Positions 4,788-41,054 of a stretch of 44,268 nt of DNA are shown in pieces. The stretch covers positions 6,876,640-6,920,907 of the forward strand of contig NC_057756.1 in NCBI RefSeq assembly GCF_004010195.1, given 5' to 3'. The stretch's first letter is position 1. Every line of letters starts with the position of its first letter. The DNA is from Chiloscyllium plagiosum. Its lineage: Eukaryota. The notes below the pieces were generated by a model. It did not search any database. It was not told the origin of the DNA and was given only the letters and a program-made list of their open reading frames with translations. The translations under genes and the position numbers were made by a program.

Positions 4788-4839
4788 ATGGAGAGAGCTG
4801 TATTCATCATCTCCGTGGTGTGCTTCGTCATATCGTACG
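4788..4839 (+). CDS. Ig-superfamily receptor, coding exon 1: signal peptide (MERAVFIISVVCFVISY)
   Basis: Good start context (aaaATGG), hydrophobic core and donor G|GTGAGA (phase 1). A polypyrimidine acceptor at 4708-4709 suggests the exon may begin at 4710, after an upstream non-coding exon. Confidence 0.8.
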
Positions 4840-4993: not shown

Positions 4994-5305
4994 CTGAGCC
5001 TTTCAGTATCTTCGTGTACAAGCCAGAGGTCAATGCCACCGTGGGTGATCGAGTCACCCTCCCGGTGAGACCCTCCTCCCCCGTCTCGAGTGGTTTCTGG
5101 AACTTTGGCGGCGAGTCCATTGTCCTGTGGACCGTCGAGCCCCCTGACCTCAACGTCGCCTACACCAAACGCAACGTGCTGCTTTTGGACAACACGTCCC
5201 TCCTCCTCCTCTCAGTAACTCTCAAAGACGCTGGGGATTACTGGGTGACGATGGACTCCCCGACTGGACAAGAAGGCAAAGCCAAGGTCACTTTGAACGT
5301 GTTCC
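4994..5305 (+). CDS. Coding exon 2: IgV domain 1, CEACAM-N-like, no cysteines
   Basis: Acceptor ttgttcccacag|, donor C|GTAAGT, 312 nt, phase 1-1. Translation includes VNATVGDRVTLPV, C-strand Trp (GFWNF), NTSLLLLSV, DAGDYWV and VTLNVF. Confidence 0.9.
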
Positions 5306-11455: not shown

Positions 11456-11770
11456 CAAAGTCTGCTCCTTTTACCATCAGCGTTGAAGGCGGCAAGATTA
11501 ATGCCGTTGCTGGGGACACAGTCATTCTGTCAGCGAGCCCTACACAAGAGGTGAAGGACGGGAGCTGGACGTTTGGAGGGAAAGCTGTCACCTGGTGGAG
11601 TGACACATTCCCCGAGATCAGCCCTGATTACAGTGGGCGGACCGCAATCTCCTCCAAGACTTCACTGAAACTGAAATCGGTTAGGGTATCGGACACTGGA
11701 GAATACGATGTGACCATGAGTACAGCATCCGGCGACACGAGGACAGCCAAAATCGAACTGAATGTCATCA
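11456..11770 (+). CDS. Coding exon 3: IgV domain 2, CEACAM-N-like, no cysteines
   Basis: Acceptor t-rich...ctttcgcctag|, donor A|GTAAGT, 315 nt, phase 1-1. Translation includes PFTISV, INAVAGDTVILSAS, GSWTF, YSGRTAI, TSLKLKSV, DTGEYDV and IELNVI. Confidence 0.9.
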
Positions 11771-13362: not shown

Positions 13363-13677
13363 CGCAACCACAGCCTCTCAGCATCTCCCCAGAGCTCAGT
13401 AGCATCAAAGCAGAGTCTGGAGCCTGTGTCATCCTCTCTGTTCATATATCCGGGGAAGTGAAGAATGGAAGCTGGGTTGCCAATGAGGAAACGCTTTTCC
13501 AGTGGTACGGCACCATTCAGAATATAACACAGCACAAGTTCTTCTGGATAGAACTCTTACCAAATGCATCCCTCCTTCTACTGTCTGTGCATCCTTACAG
13601 CTTCACAGAATTTACGATCACTCTGGAGTCCCCCACCGGTATCTCAGCATCAGCCAGTATCACCCTTCAAGTATTCA
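13363..13677 (+). CDS. Coding exon 4: IgV domain 3, divergent CEACAM-N-like
   Basis: Acceptor cctgtctcccag|, donor A|GTGAGT, 315 nt, phase 1-1. Translation includes PLSISP, ESGACVILSVH, GSWVA, LLPNASLLLLSV and ITLQVF; the DxGxY motif is replaced by SFTEF. Confidence 0.85.
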
Positions 13678-13734
13678 GTGAGTACCTGCTACAATTGTTG
13701 GATTAAAGAGTTACTTGGTTGAAACTTGCACTTA

Positions 13735-15790: not shown

Positions 15791-16248
15791 CTTCAACTCC
15801 CCCTCCCACTCCACCAGGTTCATGCAGGTCCTGGGCCTCCTCCATCACCACTCCCTAACCACCCTGGAGGAATAATGCCTTATCTTCCATCTCGAAACCT
15901 TCCAACCCCACGGCATCAATGTGGATCTCACCAGTTTCCTCATTTTCCTCTTCCCTCGCCTTATCCCAGATCCAACTTTCCAGCTTAGCACCGCCCTCAT
16001 GTCCTGTCCCACCTGTCCATCTTCCTTCCCACCTATTCGCTCCACCCTCCCATCTGACCTATCACTTTTACCCCCACCTCCATCCANNNNNNNNNNNNNN
16101 NNNNNNNNNNNNNNNNNNNNNNNNNNNNNNNNNNCACCTCGCCCCCTCCCCCCCACCCACAAGCCTCATTCCTTTTGCCTGACTCTCCTCCTCCTCGAAT
16201 GCTGCCTGACCTGCTGTGCTTTTCCAGCAACACACTCTCGACTCTGGT
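15791..16248 (+). mobile_element. Penelope-like element 3' fragment (endonuclease C-terminus plus family-A tail)
   Basis: FNSPSHS...MQVLGLLH...LEE..LIFHLETFQPHGINVDLTSF, followed by a pyrimidine-rich UTR and gctgcctgacctgctgtgcttttccagc. Confidence 0.75.
16087..16134. other. Assembly gap (48 N)
   Basis: Run of n. Confidence 1.
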
Positions 16249-19505: not shown

Positions 19506-19909
19506 TGCTTTAATCAGTGCACTGTTGTAATGTATGAATTGGTATAACTGCTTTATGGCCTGCAAAGTCCCACCTGTGTTGACGGAATGGTCAGTCATCG
19601 AGTTTTACAGCATTGAAACAGGCCATTCGGCCCAACTTGTCCATGCACCCAGTTTTCACAATTAAGCTAATCCCATATTTGGTCCATATCCCTCCATACG
19701 TATCCCATTCATGTTGAAACGTTTCTTAAATGACAAAATTGTACTCACCTCCACCACTGCATCTGGAAACCCATTCCAGACATTCACCACCCTCTGTGTG
19801 AAAAGATTGCCCCTCTGGACCCTTTTGTGTCTCTCCACTCTCACCTATTCCCTTTAGTTGTCAACCGTCCTACCCATGGGGAAAATCTGTTGGTATCCAC
19901 CTAATCAAT

Positions 19910-20140
19910 ATTAAATATCACACAACACCAGGTTATAGTCCAACAGGTTAAATTGGAAGCACACTACCTTTCGGAGCAACGCTCTTTCATCAGGTGGTTG
20001 TGGAGTCCACAACCACCTGATGAAGGACCGTCGCTCCGAAAGCTAGTGTGCTTTCAATTTAACCTGTTGGACTATAACCTGGTGTTGTGTGATTTCTAAC
20101 TTTGTACACCTCCATCCAACAACGGCAGCTCCAAATCATC
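19910..20140. mobile_element. Fold-back family-B element inside a CR1 remnant
   Basis: Inverted arms of about 90 bp centred near 20004; core CTGATGA (20017)...GAAAGCTA (20038-20045); imperfect TSD cacct(a/c)atcaat. Confidence 0.75.
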
Positions 20141-21004: not shown

Positions 21005-21133
21005 ACTTCTCTGCAAATTGTGCAACCTATTACGTTGGCCTGGTTGTTGCGGTTCTTCTGGTTTCAGTTTGCATTTTCTTCATTGGTAAGCACATCTATG
21101 TGAAGCGGCACAGAGCGATGGGCGAAATTCACG
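21005..21133 (+). CDS. Coding exon 5: transmembrane exon A
   Basis: Acceptor ttctgttcctgacag|, donor G|GTAAGT, 129 nt, phase 1-1. Translation (N)FSANCATYYVGLVVAVLLVSVCIFFIGKHIYVKRHRAMGEIH: hydrophobic span followed by basic stop-transfer residues. Confidence 0.85.
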
Positions 21134-21711
21134 GTAAGTGTCAAACTCTGCATCTCATCCAAGTGTACAAAATAGGAACAGGAGTAGGCCATTCAGCCGA
21201 TCAAGCCTCTGCCATCACTCGACAGGAGCGGGATTGATCCTCCATCTCTGTGCCGCACTCCTGATCTCTCCCTGTCCCCTTTGACACCCCTCAGCTTCTA
21301 AAGCTGTAAGACCATAAAAAACAGGAACAGCAGTACGCCATTCAGCCCCTCAGGCCCGCTCCATCAGGTAGACATGTTCTTCTTCCACCCCAAGGGTTGA
21401 AAGATCATAATAAACCAGTGGTTTTCAACTGGTGTGCTACAGCACAAACTGGTGTGCCCCCGTGAACTGCTCATGTGTTCCGTGAGATTTTGTACAATGG
21501 TAATAAAAGCCATTGCCAAGAGTATGTTGTTGAATCTTACGACCAGAAGAAATAGGAAAAGCAGCCCCTCTTTTGCCATTCAAAAGGATCATGGTTGATC
21601 CCACTTTCCTCAGCTGCACCTCCCTGTCCTTTCTCGATGAGCCTTGATTTCCCCGACTGATCAAGAATCCCTCCACCCCAGCCTGAAACATACACAGGGA
21701 CTCTGCCTGGG

Positions 21712-22200
21712 AGTGGCACGGTGGCTCAGTAGGTTAGCACCAGGGACCCAGGTTCAATTCCTGCCTTGTGGCAACTGTCTGTGTAGAGTTTGCACATTCT
21801 CCCCGTGTCTGCATGGGTTTCCTCCGGGTGCTCCGGTTTCCTCCTGCAATCCAAAGATGTGCAGGTTAGGGTGGGTTGGCCATGTTAAATTGTCCCATAA
21901 TGTTCAGGGATGTGCAGGTTAGGGTGGATTGGCCATGCTAAATTGCCCATAGTGTTCAGGGATGTGCAGGTTAGGGTGGATTGGCCGTACTAAATTGTCG
22001 CATAGTGCTCAGGGATGTGCAGGTTTGGGTGGATTGGCTGTGCTAAATTGCCCATAGTGTTCAGGGATGTGCAGGTTAGGTGCATTATTCTGGGTAAATG
22101 TAGAGTGGTAGGGGAATGGGTCTGGGTGGGTTACTCTTCGGAGGATCAGTGTGGACTTGTTGAGCTGAAGGGCCTGTTTCCACATGGTAGGGAATCTATG
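21712..22200 (+). mobile_element. HE1-like SINE with ~4 internal 53-bp repeats
   Basis: Repeated gatgtgcaggttagggtggattggccatgctaaattgtcccatagtgttcagg. Confidence 0.85.
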
Positions 22201-22730
22201 ATAAGGGGTTCCAAAGACTCACAATCCACTGAGAGAAGAATTTCTTCCTCATCACAGGCTTAAGTTTGTGCCACTTTATTCTAAGACTATTCACACCCTT
22301 CCCACTCCCCCACCAGTCCGATCTTAAAAAATATTCTATCAGATACTTGTTAAGAGTGCTAATGCGTTTATTAAAGCCTGAATTATGTTGCAAACTCCTC
22401 CAATAAGTCTGTAAATGTGAGTAGATGTGATGTTTATGAGCAAAAGATCCAGCTGTGAAAAATGAGGGGGTACCATGAAACTAAATTTTTGAAGTGTGCT
22501 GGAAAAATCGGGAGCCTTAAAACAGTGGTGTTTCCCACTGTACCTCTGCAGCAATTACCCTTAAACTTTTAATGCATCGCTTGGTTAGTCGTCCTGTTGG
22601 ATTTTAGAACGAACCAATCTGCAACTCTCAATTAAGGACAATTTCTTGCACTTGAGTACCAGCAAATTTCCGGCAAGCGTGTCTTTCGCTGAGCTGACCA
22701 CCGTTTGAGTGTTTGATTTCCATCTTCCAG

Positions 22731-22859
22731 ATCTCCTGACTATATTCTGTAAAGGATATCGGGCTGCCCTGACCTTAGTCATGATCCTGACCTTCTGCTT
22801 TATAATTGCCTTTTCTATCATCATAAACAAGTATTGGTGCATCCCCAGTACCCGGCCAG
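22731..22859 (+). CDS. Coding exon 6: transmembrane exon B (alternative or second TM)
   Basis: Acceptor tttccatcttccag|, donor AG|GTAAGT, 129 nt, phase 1-1. Translation (N/D)LLTIFCKGYRAALTLVMILTFCFIIAFSIIINKYWCIPSTRP. Confidence 0.8.
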
Positions 22860-24674: not shown

Positions 24675-25805
24675 TCATAGAATCCCTACAGCATGGAAAC
24701 AGGCATTTTGGCCCAACAAGTCCATACCAAACCTCCAAAGAGTATCCCACCCAGACCAATTCCCCTACTACTCTACATTTACTCCTGACTAATGCACTGA
24801 ACCCAAACAAGCCTGAACACCTATGGGACAATTTAGCATGGCCAATTCACCCTGACCTACACATCCCTGAACACTATGGGACAATTTAGCATGGACAATT
24901 CACCCTAACCTACACATCCCTGGGCACGCTGGGACAATTTAGCACAGCCAATTCACCCTAACCTGCACATCCCTGGACACTATGGGCCAATTTAGCACAG
25001 CCAATCCACCCGAACCTGCACATCCCTGGCCACTATGGGACAAGTTAGCATGGCCAATCCACCCTAACCTGCACATCCCTGGGCACTCTGGGACAATTTA
25101 GCATGGCCAATCCACCCTAACCTGCACACCCCTGGGCATTCTGGGACAATTTAGCATGGCCATTTCACCCTAACCTGCACATCCCTGGGCACTATGGGAC
25201 AATTTAGCAAGGTTGAAACTTTATTGCTGGAACAGCACAGCAGGTCAGGCAGCATCCAGGGAACAGGAGATTCGACGTTTCGGGCACAGGCCAGGGCCCG
25301 AAACGTCGAATCTCCTGTTCCCTGGATGCTGCCTGACCTGCTGTGCTGTTCCAGCAATAAAGTTTCAACTTTGATCTCCAGCATCTGCAGACCTCACTTT
25401 CTCCTCGACAATTTAGCAAGGCCAATCCACCCTAACCCGCACATCCTTGGGCACTATGGGACAATTTAGCATGGCCAATCCACCGTAACCTTCACATCCC
25501 TAGGCACTATGGGACAATTTAGCACGGCCAATTCACCCTAACCTGCACACCCCCGGGCACTATGGGACAATTTAGCACAGCCAATCCACCCTAACCTGCA
25601 CATCCCTGAACACTATGGGACAATTTAGCATGGCCAATCCACCCTAACCTGCAGATTTGTGGACTGTGGGAGGAAACTGGAGCACCCAGATGATATCCAC
25701 GCAGACACGGGGAGAACACGCAAACTCCACGCAGACAGTCACCCAAGGCTGGGATCGAACCCTGACTAATGCACTGAATCCACTGAGTGCTAACCACTGA
25801 GCCAC
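24675..25805 (-). mobile_element. HE1-like SINE with ~12 tandem 53-bp internal repeats
   Basis: Unit ggacaatttagcatggccaatccaccctaacctgcacatccctgggcactatg recurs at a 53-bp period from ~24826 to ~25650. Confidence 0.9.
25213..25406. mobile_element. Fold-back family-A element inserted in the SINE array
   Basis: 15-bp TSD gacaatttagcaagg (25198-25212, 25407-25421); perfect 74-bp inverted arms at 25212-25285 and 25296-25369. Confidence 0.9.
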
Positions 25806-27083: not shown

Positions 27084-27106
27084 TTCTGGACTTTGTTGCT
27101 GAGTAA
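27084..27106 (+). CDS. Probable last coding exon (VLDFVAE*); exon extends to the donor after 27132
   Basis: Strong acceptor tgttctcctctgtcttgttgcag|; phase-1 entry gives TAA at 27104-27106; donor AG|GTGAGT at 27133 (alternative AG|GTGAGA at 27117). Confidence 0.6.
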
Positions 27107-27276
27107 CCCTATCCAGGTGAGACAGTTAATAGGTGAGTATTTGCAGTATATCAAGAGGTAAGACAAGTCTTTAAGTTATGATAACTTGCTGGGGTAATAC
27201 ACTGGAAATCAAGTCCTTTGATTCCTTAAGTTATCACAAACGTTTAAAAAGTTTCCAATTTACTTGTCTCTCACGA

Positions 27277-28690
27277 AGTCATAGAGATGTACAACACGGA
27301 AACAGACCCGTCAGTCCAACTCGTCCATGCCAACCAGATATCCCAATTTAATCTAGTCCCATTTGCCAGCACTAGGCCCTCTAAACCTTTCCTATTTACA
27401 TAACCATCCAGATGCCTTTTAAATGTTGTAATTGAACCAGCCTCCACCACATCCTCTGGCAGCCCATTCCGTACATGGACCACCCTTTGCATGAAAATGT
27501 TGCCCCTTAGGTCTCTTTTATATCTTTCCCCTCTCACCCTATACCTATGTCCTCTAGTGCTGGACTCCCACACACCAGGGAAAAGATATTTACCATATCC
27601 ATGCCCCTCATGATTTTATAAACCTCTACAAGATCACCCCTCAGCCTTTGACACTCCAGCGAAAACAGCCCCAGCCTATTCCACCTCTCCCTATAGGTCA
27701 AATTCTCCAACCCTGGCAACATCCTTATAAATCTTTTCTGAACCCTTTCAAGTTTCAGAACTTCCTTCCAATAGGAAGGAGGCCAGAATTGCACGCACTA
27801 TTCCAAAAGTGGCCTAACCAATGCCCTGTACAGCCGCAACATGATCTCCCAACTCCTGTACTCAATACTCTGACCTATAAAGGAAAGATTACCAAATGCC
27901 TTCTTCACTAACCTATCTGTGACTCCACTTTCAAGGAGCTATGAACCTGCCCTCCAAGGTCTCTTTGGTCAGCAACACTCCCTAGGACTTAGATTAAATG
28001 TCAAAGTCCTGCTAAGATTTGCTTTCCCAAAATACAGCACCTCGCATTTATATAAATTAAACTCCATATGCTACTCCACAGCCTATTGGCCCATAGGATT
28101 TGAACTAGTGACTCTGGAGGAACTGTGATAAGGATGGTCAGGGGCTTGGAGGGGAACTTGGAGACAGTGGTCTTCCCATGTATCGGCTGCCCTTTGTCCT
28201 TCGAGATGGAAGTCGTCATGTGTTTGGAGCCTTAGTCGACTTCTACAGTGCATCTTCGAATCATAAGAGTTGTACAGCACGGTATCAGACCCTTCACTCC
28301 AACTGGTCCATGCCAACCAGATATCCAAAATTAATCTAGTCCCATTTGCCAGCATTTGGCCCATATCCCTCTTAAACCCTTTCCATTCATATATCCATCC
28401 AGATGCCTTTTAAATGTTGTAATTGTATCAACCTCCACCACTTCCTCTAGCAGCTCATTCCATACACGTGCCACCCTCTATGTGAAATAGTCACCCCTCA
28501 GGTCCTTTTTAAATCTTTCTCCTCTCACCTTAAACCTATGCCATCTATTTTTGGACTCCCCTATCCTGGGAAAAAGACCTTGGCTATTCACATTATCCAT
28601 GCTCATGATTTTATAAACCTCGATAAGGTCACCCCTGAACCTCCGACACTCCAGGGAAAATAGCCCGAGCCGATCCAGCCTCTCCCTATT
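27277..28690 (-). mobile_element. Tandem CR1 LINE fragments
   Basis: LERVQKRFIRMLPGLENLTYRERWNRLGLFSLE and NIFMQRVVHVRNGLP; two CR1 tails. Confidence 0.85.
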
Positions 28691-30386: not shown

Positions 30387-30880
30387 GGGTGGCACAGTGG
30401 TTAGCACTGCTGCCTCACAGCACCAGAGACCTGGGATTGATTCCAACCTCAGGGTGACTGTCTGTGTGGAGTTTGCAAACTCTCCCCATGTCTGTATGGG
30501 TTTCCTCCGGGTGCTCCGGTTTCCTCCCACTCGCCAAAGGTGTGCAGGTCAGGGTGGATTGGCCATGCTAAATTGTCCCATAATGTTCAGGGATGTGCAA
30601 GTTAGGGTGGATTGGCCATGCTAAATTGTCCCATAGTGTCCAGGGATGTGCACATGCTAAATTGTCCCATAGTGTCCAGGGATGTGCAGGTTAGGGTGGA
30701 TTGGTCGTGCTAAATTGACAGTCGTGTTCAGGGACATGCGGGTTAGATGCAATAGTTAGGGATAAATGTATATGCAATAGGAGAGGGGGTTGAGTCTGGG
30801 TGGGTCACTCTTCGGAGGGTCGGTGTGGACTTGTTGGACCAAAGGGCCTGTTTCCACACTGTCGGGGTTCCGTGATGATT
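30387..30880 (+). mobile_element. HE1-like SINE with internal 53-bp repeats
   Basis: Head, core and tail plus 3-4 repeat units. Confidence 0.85.
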
Positions 30881-34149: not shown

Positions 34150-34513
34150 TGGGTAGTGGCTCAGTGGTTAGCACTGCTGCCTCACAACATCAGGGATCCG
34201 GGCTCAATTCCCACCTTGGGCAACTGTCTGTGTAGATTTTGCACATCCTCCCAGTGTCTCTGCGGGTTTCATCTGGATGCTCTGGTTTCCTCCCACAATC
34301 CAAAGTTGTGTAGGTTAGGATTGATTGGCCATGCAAAATTGTCCCATAGTGTCCAGGAATGTGCAGGTTAGGGTGGATTGGCCATGGGAAATTGTCCCAT
34401 ATTGTCCCATAGTGTCCAGGGATGTGCAGGTTAGGATGGATTGGCCATGCTAAATTGTCCCATAGTGTGCAGGTGCATTAGTCAGTGGTAAATATAGAAT
34501 AGGGGATTGGGTC
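34150..34513 (+). mobile_element. HE1-like SINE, 5' part (3' tail resumes at 38243-38326 after the LTR element)
   Basis: Breaks at ...aggggattgggtc and resumes ggtctacgtgggttactcttcagagggtcggtgtggac...gtaaggaatctaatct. Confidence 0.85.
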
Positions 34514-36500: not shown

Positions 36501-36808
36501 CCCCCATGAGGAGTAAAGTGAGAAACGGGTTAAAATCCTCCAGTGGTGAAATTTGAGGCCCGGTGAGTCTTTGGGGAAAGAGAGTGACTCGGATCGCGAT
36601 GCCACGTGGTCTGCTGCGAGGGCTTTCTCTGTTTATCAGTGTAATTTCAGAGCAAGGATGCAAACAAAAATGAGAAAACACTGAAACTAAGAATGTGCTA
36701 ATATTTGGGTCAAGAGGGGAGGTTTCAATATAAATTGTGCCATGCTGAGAGTGTTTGATGTTTAAAAATTTTGGTTTGTTAAAATACTGGTTCAGAAAAT
36801 CCTTTTAA

Positions 36809-37070
36809 GTAACTATTTTGCCTTGTTTGAATCAGGATCTCAATTCAATGTGTTTTGTCGGCTGTGTAATAGGGCAGATTTTGTTTTCACATTGAAATTG
36901 TACAACATTATGTCCTTTTTAAAATTATTTGGAGATGCCAGTAACTGTTTTGCCTTGTTTGAATCAGGATCTCAATTCAATGTGTTTTGTCGCTGTGTAA
37001 TAGGGCAGATTTTGTTTTCACATTGAAATTGTACAACATTATGTCCTTTTTAAAATTATTTGGAGATGCC
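36809..37070 (+). repeat. Near-perfect tandem duplication, ~131 bp x2
   Basis: gtaact.ttttgccttgtttgaatcagg...aaaattatttggagatgcc at 36809-36939 and 36941-37070. Confidence 0.95.
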
Positions 37071-39062: not shown

Positions 39063-40424
39063 CTCAGGGTTCATGTGCAGAATTCTCTGAGAAACGGGCA
39101 TCACTTCGAGATTAATGGCATTCCAACCCCAAGATCTTTATTTCCTCATTTGCACTCGTTATCTTGTGACAAGCACTCTGAAATACTTGAGTGAACAACA
39201 TCTTGTCATTTGACAAACAAAATTGCTCGAGGGGACACAATCTTTTCATCCTCCATCTGGATTTGGACCATTCGATGCAGTTACTTGTCAATTTTAACAA
39301 AGCAAAATCTTGTGCCGAAGTAGGTTGGTATGAATTATTTATCGAAGGTGGAAGTGGGTGTGCCTGTTCCTCTGAAATATGTTAGAACTGTGTACATTCC
39401 AATCTCATTATCAGCCAGGACTGGAGGGGTTGGTGCGTCGATCGTGCCTGTAAAAGAACTATCAATTTCCCCCATGCTCTTCCCCCATCGTCTTGAGGAA
39501 TTTTCTCTGTGAGTTTTTTTTTTAACCAAGGTCATCAGAGAGCAGCTTCCAAATAAACCTGTTGGACTATAACATGGAGTTGTGTGATTTTTAACTTTGT
39601 GCCACCCTAGTCCTCTCCAAATCATTTTTTTAAGCAGTTCACTTCATAAAGTACTGGAGGCTTCGACTCCATTTTGGTGCTAACAAAACAAAAATCTACT
39701 CCATTTTGCTGTGCAGGCTCTTGTCGTGCAGTGGTACTGTCCCTATTTCTGAGCCAAGAGGCCTGAGTTCAAATCCCACTTGTTCCGGCAGTATGCCTTA
39801 AGATCTCCAAACAGACTGATTAGAAAATATCTCTACTCTCCAAGAGGCTATCACAGTACAGCGGTAAAGTCCGTATCTCTGAGCCCACTGTTTCAGAGAT
39901 GAGGCATATAACATTGGTTGATGAGAAAATATCTCTACTCCTCTTTGCTTGCCCGCTCCCTGTATTCTTTAATTGCCGAAGAGACCATAAGCCTGCATGA
40001 GATACATTCAATAGGGGAACATCCTCAACCAGAAACTTGGGGTGAAATTCTACAGACTCGTTCCTTTGGGTGGTCATTTATCCTGAAGTGGTCTGAGATT
40101 TTTTTTCAAGATGGCGAAGCAGTGGTAGTGGAATGTGTGGGCTCTCAGCCCATCTACTTGTCCACTTTGTTCTTCTATTTTTGTTTCAAATGTTTCCATT
40201 TATTATGGGACTTTACCTTCTTCTAATGACCTCGGCAGAAGGCATCTTCTCCCAGCCCAGGCCTGCTGACGAGGTGGTTTCCAGCAACTCGGACTGGTGG
40301 TGTAGGCCTAGTGAGGAGGTCTCCCAGTGTGGTGGTCTCGTCCAGGAGGGTGTGGTCTCGGCCTGGTGAGGAGGTCTCGTCTTTATTTTGGAGATGGCTT
40401 CAGAGTCTTCCAATGGCCCAGCAC

Positions 40425-40712
40425 GGCAGTCTAGTCCCAGCTCGGAGGCCTAGTCCCAGCTCGAAGGTCTAGTCCCAGCTCAGAGGTCTAGTCCCAGGAA
40501 GAACGTCGAGTTCCAGCATGGAGGTCTAGTCCCCAGCTTGGAGGCCTAGTCCCAGCATAGGGGTCTAGCCCCCAGCATTGAGGCCGAGTTCCAGTTTGGA
40601 GGCCTAGTCCCTGCACAGAGGTCTAATCCCAGCTCAGAGGTCGAGTCTCAGGAAGGACAACAAGTCGCAGCAAGGAGGTGTATTCCCAACAAGGAGGCCT
40701 AGTCCCAGCATG
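40425..40712 (+). repeat. Minisatellite, ~19-20-bp unit ggaggcctagtcccagc(tc/at)
   Basis: About 14 degenerate copies. Confidence 0.85.
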
Positions 40713-41054
40713 GAAATGTCATTTTGGTGTGGCTTGGTAGTCTCTACCTGATCTTCAGCTTACCTCAAACCCAGGAGCCGTTACTTGAACTATGATGAAC
40801 TTTTGCTTCTTATTTTTTTCTCACTTATGACTTCTGTCATTAAGTTAAGCACTCATAAACTTTATCGCTTTTTTTGTTGTAAACATACATGTGACAATAA
40901 TTTGCTATTTTGAATGACCGAGCCCTAATCCTGAGACCACGTTTTAAATGCAATGATTCCATTGCTCACCCCTGCCATTTCCACTCAGGATTCGGGAATT
41001 TACAAATCAGGCACAGACCAAGGGGATTGGCTGCTAACTCTGTCGTGCGAGTGT

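Follow-up and report, generated by a model that had tools for sequence, protein, structure and literature searches.

The stretch of DNA analysed here, referred to throughout as the window, comprises 44,268 nucleotides (nt) of Chiloscyllium plagiosum (RefSeq assembly GCF_004010195.1, contig NC_057756.1, positions 6,876,640 to 6,920,907). It carries a gene predicted to encode a CEACAM-like protein with three cysteine-free, V-like immunoglobulin (Ig) domains. The subject of this report is a pair of consecutive exons of that gene, A and B, each of which encodes a hydrophobic span suited to a transmembrane (TM) helix. We consider it probable that the two exons together provide the helical-hairpin anchor of an elasmobranch-specific protein, that A is joined to B by default, and that either exon or both can be skipped without loss of the reading frame. 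This departs from an earlier interpretation of the same DNA, the sequence-only reading, which took A and B for an old exon duplication and for switchable or mutually exclusive anchors, on the premise that a single TM segment is needed and by comparison with exon 17 of insect Dscam1.

The two exons were located as follows:

21005..21133, plus strand: exon 5, called exon A; 129 nt, phase 1-1; encodes a stalk, the first hydrophobic helix and the basic stretch KHIYVKRHRAMGEIH.
22731..22859, plus strand: exon 6, called exon B; 129 nt, phase 1-1; encodes LLTIFCKGYR, the second hydrophobic helix and NKYWC...RP.

Both exons are directly preceded by AG and are free of stops in phase 1, with the translations FSANCATYYVGLVVAVLLVSVCIFFIGKHIYVKRHRAMGEIH for A and LLTIFCKGYRAALTLVMILTFCFIIAFSIIINKYWCIPSTRP for B. 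In each, a short stalk with a C-x-x-Y motif leads into a hydrophobic span: CATY is followed by YYVGLVVAVLLVSVCIFFIG in A, and CKGY by AALTLVMILTFCFIIAFSIII in B. When the codon split by the splice site is counted as residue 1, Tyr10, Cys23 and Lys34 occupy the same positions in the two exons. Compared to the consensus MAG/GTRAGT, the donor of exon A (ACG/GTAAGT) matches at eight of nine positions and that of exon B (CAG/GTAAGT) at all nine, while the donors of the three Ig exons are weaker (six of nine each). A and B are separated by an intron of 1597 nt, and all introns of the gene are GT-AG introns in phase 1. The phase of A and B is not distinctive, since the gene's Ig exons have it too. 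It does mean, together with the length of 3 x 43 nt, that the frame survives the loss of A, of B or of both: the product has 424 amino acids (aa) with both exons (1275 nt, intact), 381 with one and 338 with none. In these structural matters, from lengths, phases and splice sites to the stalk motifs and the frame of every combination, the sequence-only reading was accurate.

Each exon is present as a single copy in the 3.56-Gb assembly, as judged from genome searches with the exon peptides. Searches with the single A and B peptides for paralogous anchor exons returned nothing beyond four matches at E 4-7, which we took as chance. Exon A is 86% and exon B 93% identical to the corresponding parts of the C. 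punctatum protein P0001. Conservation in orthologues rules out that A or B is a chance open frame within a repeat. An origin of the two exons from different genes was also rejected: the interval between them is free of Ig exons, and A and B are joined in orthologue models.

Orthologues were collected by searches with the Ig3 and Ig1 exons, from cluster members and by a profile search. This gave models from 14 elasmobranch species: ten sharks (Chiloscyllium punctatum, Hemiscyllium, Stegostoma, Rhincodon, two species of Scyliorhinus, Mustelus, Carcharodon, Heterodontus and Heptranchias) and four rays (Mobula hypostoma, M. birostris, Hemitrygon and Narcine). The 32 protein models counted, all of them automated predictions, were classed by motif in 31 cases and by eye in one (P0032); Narcine X1 was not included. 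C. punctatum has Ig exons 96-99% identical to those of the window. A is joined to B in 20 of the 32 models and in 12 of the 14 species, the species count being the safer one because Hemiscyllium contributes several identical proteins whose loci are nearly the same. The joined form occurs in all four rays and in the deep shark branches Heptranchias and Heterodontus, and it is the sole anchor form returned for Carcharodon, Heterodontus, Heptranchias (5/5 isoforms), Mobula birostris and C. punctatum, where the same 424-aa sequence is found under GenBank GCC21110.1 and RefSeq accessions. The premise of a single required TM segment, with the two exons as alternatives in the manner of Dscam1, is not supported by this distribution.

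Other combinations exist as well. Four models from three species contain B only (two Hemiscyllium loci, 381 aa; Stegostoma X2, 383 aa; S. canicula X2, 384 aa), and two contain A only followed by the normal tail (S. canicula X3, 384 aa; Hemitrygon X2, 593 aa). A is followed by a read-through or another ending in three models (Hemiscyllium, 429 aa; S. torazame, 380 aa; Mustelus). Two retain the tail and lack both exons (Hemiscyllium X3, 338 aa), and one ends after Ig3 (Rhincodon). A tail of the LDFVAE type closes 25 of the 31 motif-classed models. With 424, 381 and 338 aa, the Hemiscyllium models have exactly the lengths that follow from the sequence-only reading, and to this extent its idea of switchable anchors stands: A and B are genuine, conserved TM exons of one Ig gene, and relatives have models with B only, A only or neither. 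Mutually exclusive use is not supported, because most orthologue models join A to B. In the window, the frame stays open for 34 more codons past the exon A donor (21134-21237, beginning GKCQTLHLIQVYKIGTGV...). An equivalent read-through forms the Hemiscyllium RefSeq model P0009 (429 aa), and the S. torazame GenBank model ends GKH, which suggests intron retention or mis-annotation in these two cases.

The last 93 residues, comprising A, B and the tail, align without gaps across ten species, with 43 codons per exon in each. The residues invariant in all ten are C6, Y9, L13, L18, L19 and I24 in A, L46, K51, G52, Y53, R54, C80 and P86 in B, and F90 in the tail, together with D44, which is the codon split by the A/B junction. 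Narcine, which stands outside this alignment, also has both A and B and keeps C6, D44, C80, P86 and F90. Both exons are present without insertion or deletion in the ten aligned species, and are retained in Narcine. Eight three-domain sequences were compared pairwise; their mean identity is 0.79 in Ig1, 0.71 in Ig2, 0.66 in Ig3, 0.54 in A and 0.62 in B. When a HMMER profile built on the 93 columns was searched against 1.84 billion representative proteins, four matched at E<=0.001, all from this family, with no chimaera or bony-vertebrate protein among them. Within the sensitivity of that search, the A+B+tail module is confined to elasmobranchs.

The properties of the encoded segments are consistent with a hairpin. 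The peaks of hydrophobicity over 19 residues lie between 2.0 and 3.4 on the Kyte-Doolittle scale for both helices in all 11 species compared. The 26-residue segment between the helices contains 4-7 Lys and Arg residues, and the 17-residue C-terminal tail 1-3. AlphaFold2, applied to the alignment, predicts helices at residues 2-38 and 45-78 with a break at 39-44. A complex prediction of A (residues 1-43) against B plus tail (44-93) returned 'no answer' with a score of 0.02, alignments not being used. Because TM-grade stretches, a loop rich in Lys and Arg and the AlphaFold2 helices all fit it, we infer a hairpin whose two ends are extracellular and whose basic loop is cytosolic. Splicing would join A to B by default and give the 424-aa product; with strong splice sites on both exons and no constraint that selects one over the other, the default product should hold both. 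The Ig domains would be extracellular, helix 1 from exon A would cross the membrane, the 26-residue basic loop would lie in the cytosol, helix 2 from exon B would cross back, and the 17-residue tail would again be extracellular.

In such a topology, C6 and C80 would lie on the same extracellular face, close to the membrane. Both cysteines are present in 11/11 species, and the ectodomain is cysteine-free in seven of these. One may speculate that a C6-C80 disulfide acts as an intramolecular staple or links two molecules into a dimer; both are conceivable. A search for the immunoreceptor tyrosine-based inhibitory, switch and activation motifs (ITIM, ITSM and ITAM) in the 11 orthologue anchors found none in any of them, and signalling motifs in the loop were accordingly dropped as a candidate feature; signalling, if any, would require a partner. 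The A/B junction creates the sequence EIHDLL, which fits the acidic di-leucine pattern [DE]xxxL[LI] and arises only when A and B are joined (21041-21133 plus 22731-22745). Present in only 5/11 orthologues, it is too little conserved to be taken as a functional feature.

A product lacking A or B would be single-pass, in one of two different forms, and a product lacking both would be secreted. In the B-only form the exon B helix would insert the opposite way and the tail would become cytosolic. We regard the skipped forms as probable minor or regulated variants of a two-pass protein, and not as the states of an either/or switch. A more ambitious possibility, to which we give distinctly less credence, is that exon choice amounts to a four-state topology switch between a (perhaps stapled) hairpin, two single-pass receptors and a secreted decoy. 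In it, the B-only form would carry the tail with C80 from the outside into the cytosol. If exon choice is regulated by tissue or state and has been maintained since the divergence of sharks and rays, this would be a natural anchor switch with four states, unlike any that the searchable literature describes for an Ig-superfamily receptor.

To our knowledge, Ig-superfamily receptors are almost always single-pass or linked to glycosylphosphatidylinositol (GPI). For an adhesion or recognition molecule, it would be unusual to be anchored as this CEACAM-like protein may be, by a conserved hairpin of two helices that leaves the C-terminus outside the cell and brings no signalling motif into the cytosol. 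As the frame tolerates the loss of either helix, the gene could also offer a compact natural case of exon choice altering membrane topology. If A+B inclusion is simply constitutive, what is left is a lineage-specific two-pass protein of the Ig superfamily, of modest interest.

Several observations weigh against the default two-pass hairpin. The sequence-only reading had opposed alternative use to a constitutive junction 21133>22731; the corresponding A-to-B junction is present in 20 models. Skipped forms are annotated in four of the 14 species (Hemiscyllium, Stegostoma, S. canicula and Hemitrygon), so that inclusion of both exons is not obligatory. Default inclusion appears from automated gene models, in which the RefSeq label X1 is no measure of abundance. 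A search of sequencing runs with the Ig3 exon listed no run known to be RNA that contains it; three contig sets may be RNA, and two raw single-cell RNA runs bear the species label. Narcine has KGHH in place of KGYR and CTANN in place of C-x-x-Y-N, and so keeps neither KGYR nor Y9. The charge bias is moderate, with a net charge of the C-terminal tail of up to +3 in Heptranchias. AlphaFold2 confidence is middling, with a mean predicted local distance difference test (pLDDT) of 67.5 and a predicted template modelling score (pTM) of 0.41, and the model does not show helix packing or proximity of C6 and C80. Finally, a weak similarity between the profiles of A and B, as reported next, is what would be expected of duplicated alternative exons.

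On a rival view, A and B descend from one exon and serve as alternative anchors. The working proteins would then be single-pass, with A only or B only, chosen by tissue or state, and the A+B form would be a by-product or a form inflated by annotation that favours the longest frame. We think this unlikely. In the window sequence, A and B agree at 37/129 nucleotides (p 0.25) and 5/42 amino acids (p 0.12), with a Smith-Waterman score of 28 (p 0.15), so that their likeness does not rise above that of shuffled sequences; in register, 1-6 of 43 residues match per species. When alignment columns were compared with hhalign, A 6-33 was aligned with B 7-34 at a score of 23.8 (P 3.6e-5, probability 71%). 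This alignment pairs C-x-x-Y and the helix of A with C-K-G-Y and the helix of B, one residue off the register proposed in the sequence-only reading. Thirty free shuffles of the columns scored at most 18.5; when shuffling left the stalk, helix and tail blocks in place, 23.8 was reached in 2/100 cases with B shuffled and in 0/100 with A shuffled. The old exon duplication is thus undetectable in a single sequence and weakly suggested by the profile-profile comparison, and a common origin of A and B is possible.

This profile similarity speaks for alternative anchors, as do the shared length and phase, which hold in every species aligned, the B-only models in three species and the A-only models with a tail in two. 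Inverted repeats around exon B, described below, could also favour its looping out. Against this stand the joining of A to B in 12 of 14 species, five of them with no other anchor form returned, the conservation of the junction residue D44 and of the basic loop, and the strong splice sites on both exons, with no enforced choice visible in the sequence.

A further reading accepts that both exons are included, and has the B stretch lie in the cytosol or at the membrane interface, which would make a type I protein with a hydrophobic tail; alternatively, B might serve as a GPI signal in the A-skipped form, as in the GPI-linked CEACAMs. This is quite improbable in our view. In its favour, CEACAM5-8 are GPI-anchored by way of altered TM exons, and the AlphaFold2 model shows no helix packing. 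Helix 2, however, is hydrophobic to TM grade over about 21 residues in 11/11 species, and the loop upstream of it is the most basic segment. A GPI signal ends with its hydrophobic stretch, whereas here helix 2 is followed by 17 residues with Lys, Arg, Asp and Glu.

Strictly exclusive splicing in the style of Dscam1 exon 17, with A and B never in one mRNA, is highly improbable. Exclusivity can be enforced by a short intron (steric hindrance), a clash of U2 and U12 splice sites, a frameshift with nonsense-mediated decay, or competing RNA pairing. The first three mechanisms were checked in the sequence and none applies: the A-B intron, at 1597 nt, is far too long for a steric block, both introns are ordinary GT-AG introns of the U2 type, which excludes a clash, and 129 is a multiple of 3, so that neither joint inclusion nor joint skipping shifts the frame. 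In PMC3228551, equal length, same frame and homology are the search criteria for mutually exclusive exons, and non-exclusive neighbouring exons in Drosophila are found rarely to share them. A and B share two of these three features, length and phase, which favours exclusivity; homology is doubtful and not evident from single sequences, and by annotation the two exons do occur together in one mRNA (20/32 models).

The gene as a whole consists of seven coding exons that join to 1275 nt with an intact frame of 424 aa, as established from tblastn of the orthologues P0001 and P0011 against the window and from the sequence itself. The five exons other than A and B are:

4788..4839, plus strand: exon 1, start codon and signal peptide MERAVFIISVVCFVISY; phase-1 end, donor GTGAGA; found by tblastn of P0001/P0011.
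4994..5305, plus strand: exon 2, Ig1, V-like and cysteine-free; 312 nt, phase 1-1; 99% identity to C. punctatum over 104 aa.
11456..11770, plus strand: exon 3, Ig2, V-like; 315 nt, phase 1-1; found by tblastn.
13363..13677, plus strand: exon 4, Ig3, V-like; 315 nt, phase 1-1; donor at 13678.
27084..27106, plus strand: last coding exon, end of the split codon, LDFVAE and TAA; read from the sequence.

Pairwise identity among the three Ig domains is 29-39%, and they give overlapping Pfam V-set and I-set matches; the V-set matches of Ig1 (E 2e-4) and Ig2 (E 4.5e-5) lie under the curated cut-off. Used as a query, the Ig3 exon retrieved eight shark protein clusters. The tail reads VLDFVAE after A or B, would read ILDFVAE directly after Ig3, and in its former version is identical to that of C. 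punctatum at 7/7 positions. An assembly gap of 48 N lies at 16087-16134, inside the 7.3-kb intron between Ig3 and A, and makes the length and content of that intron uncertain. There is a possible donor CAG/GTGAGA 11 nt past the stop codon (27107-27125), and the 3' untranslated region may for this reason extend into a further exon; the first ATTAAA is at 27993.

Outside the window, ten further V-like Ig exons are 37-42% identical to Ig1. Nine of them are on the same contig (C47), where such exons spread over about 3 Mb at roughly 5.09-8.17 Mb, and one is at C82182:3901-4200. The latter match equals that at C47:8169203 in score, E-value and identity, and the two are possibly one locus assembled twice. 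In this local cluster of related Ig-superfamily genes, no A- or B-like exon was detectable by single-peptide search.

The window is vertebrate DNA in which dispersed repeats are abundant, and two repeat arrays flank exon B:

21774..22053, no strand assigned: array of a dispersed repeat (53-bp unit) in the intron separating A and B, where it forms the left arm of inverted repeats on the two sides of exon B; tandem array at 21856-22080.
24826..25762, no strand assigned: same 53-bp-unit repeat in opposite orientation in the intron after B, right arm; array at 24821-25653, 15.8 copies.

Many inverted pairs flank exon B in this way (I2, I5, I7-I12, I14-I21, I23, I24), 84-92% complementary over 90-175 nt. 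We conjecture that they could favour skipping, looping out or back-splicing of exon B in this species. Arrays of the 53-bp unit are also present at 30541-30688 and 34307-34473. Two near-perfect palindromes were noted, one at 19906-20104 (99-nt arms, 91%, one base between them) and one at 25208-25373 (83-nt arms, 96%, no spacer). Downstream of the gene there are a 131-bp tandem duplication (two copies, 98%) and a 19-bp minisatellite (15.6 copies), at 36808-37070 and 40417-40714. Long minus-strand open frames of 179 and 343 aa at 121-1766 look, by eye, like a remnant of the endonuclease and reverse transcriptase of a long interspersed nuclear element. Many shorter fragments with the recurring pattern ...RVQRRFTRM.PG...RL..LGLFSLE.RRLRGDLIE.YK... 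are scattered over both strands across the whole window.

RefSeq already contains the orthologue sequences, as models that are uncharacterized or bear loose names. Our literature searches, which did not cover supplements, found no description of the two-helix anchor. No paper came up for one locus tag or for the gene identifiers of five of the orthologues, and a search on splicing and double TM anchors in shark Ig-superfamily genes showed nothing relevant among the papers listed. The arrangement can nevertheless be set beside several known systems. Exon 17 of insect Dscam1 encodes a TM segment and has two alternatives that are used in a mutually exclusive manner. PMC8042237 counts exon 17 as one of four variable clusters. 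The likeness is that of an Ig-superfamily cell-surface gene with two adjoining TM-encoding exons. By contrast, the shark exons are joined in most annotated products, have no clear mutual homology and show no visible enforcing mechanism, and the predicted outcome is cassette skipping around a two-pass default instead of a choice of one out of two.

The N domain of CEACAMs lacks the canonical disulfide, and so do the V-like domains of the shark protein, whose ectodomain is cysteine-free in seven of the 11 species as noted above. Its best sequence matches among solved structures are CEA (1e07, E 8e-8), CEACAM6 (2.8e-7) and CEACAM1 (1.3e-6), and some orthologues are labelled 'CEACAM21-like' or 'CEACAM8-like' in RefSeq. 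CEACAM homologues have been reported from cartilaginous fish (PMC3628338, PMC4079198, PMC13278318), and the relevant passages of these papers on CEACAM evolution describe no two-helix anchor. With three consecutive V-like domains, the shark protein appears to differ from the CEACAM pattern of a V-like N domain followed by C2-type (A/B) domains. It also differs in an anchor with two hydrophobic helices and no ITIM, ITSM or ITAM, whereas CEACAMs have one TM segment with a tail that carries such motifs, or a GPI anchor.

Switching between membrane and soluble forms by skipping of a TM exon is known from Fc receptors and IL-6R, and CD58 exists in TM and GPI forms. The shark gene resembles these in its phase 1-1 exons, whose in-frame loss would give a secreted form; the 338-aa Hemiscyllium model is of this type. 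It differs in having two TM exons, so that four products and three topologies are possible, and in that the B helix would have to take one orientation in the A+B form and the reverse in the B-only form. Multi-pass proteins of the Ig superfamily also exist: CD47 has five TM segments and mouse Skint1 three, each with an Ig ectodomain and no classical signalling motifs. The shark protein shares with them an Ig ectodomain on a multi-spanning anchor that lacks such motifs. No sequence relation to them was found; the module profile matched only the shark and ray family among the representative proteins searched, and the shark anchor would be distinguished by two spans and an extracellular C-terminus.

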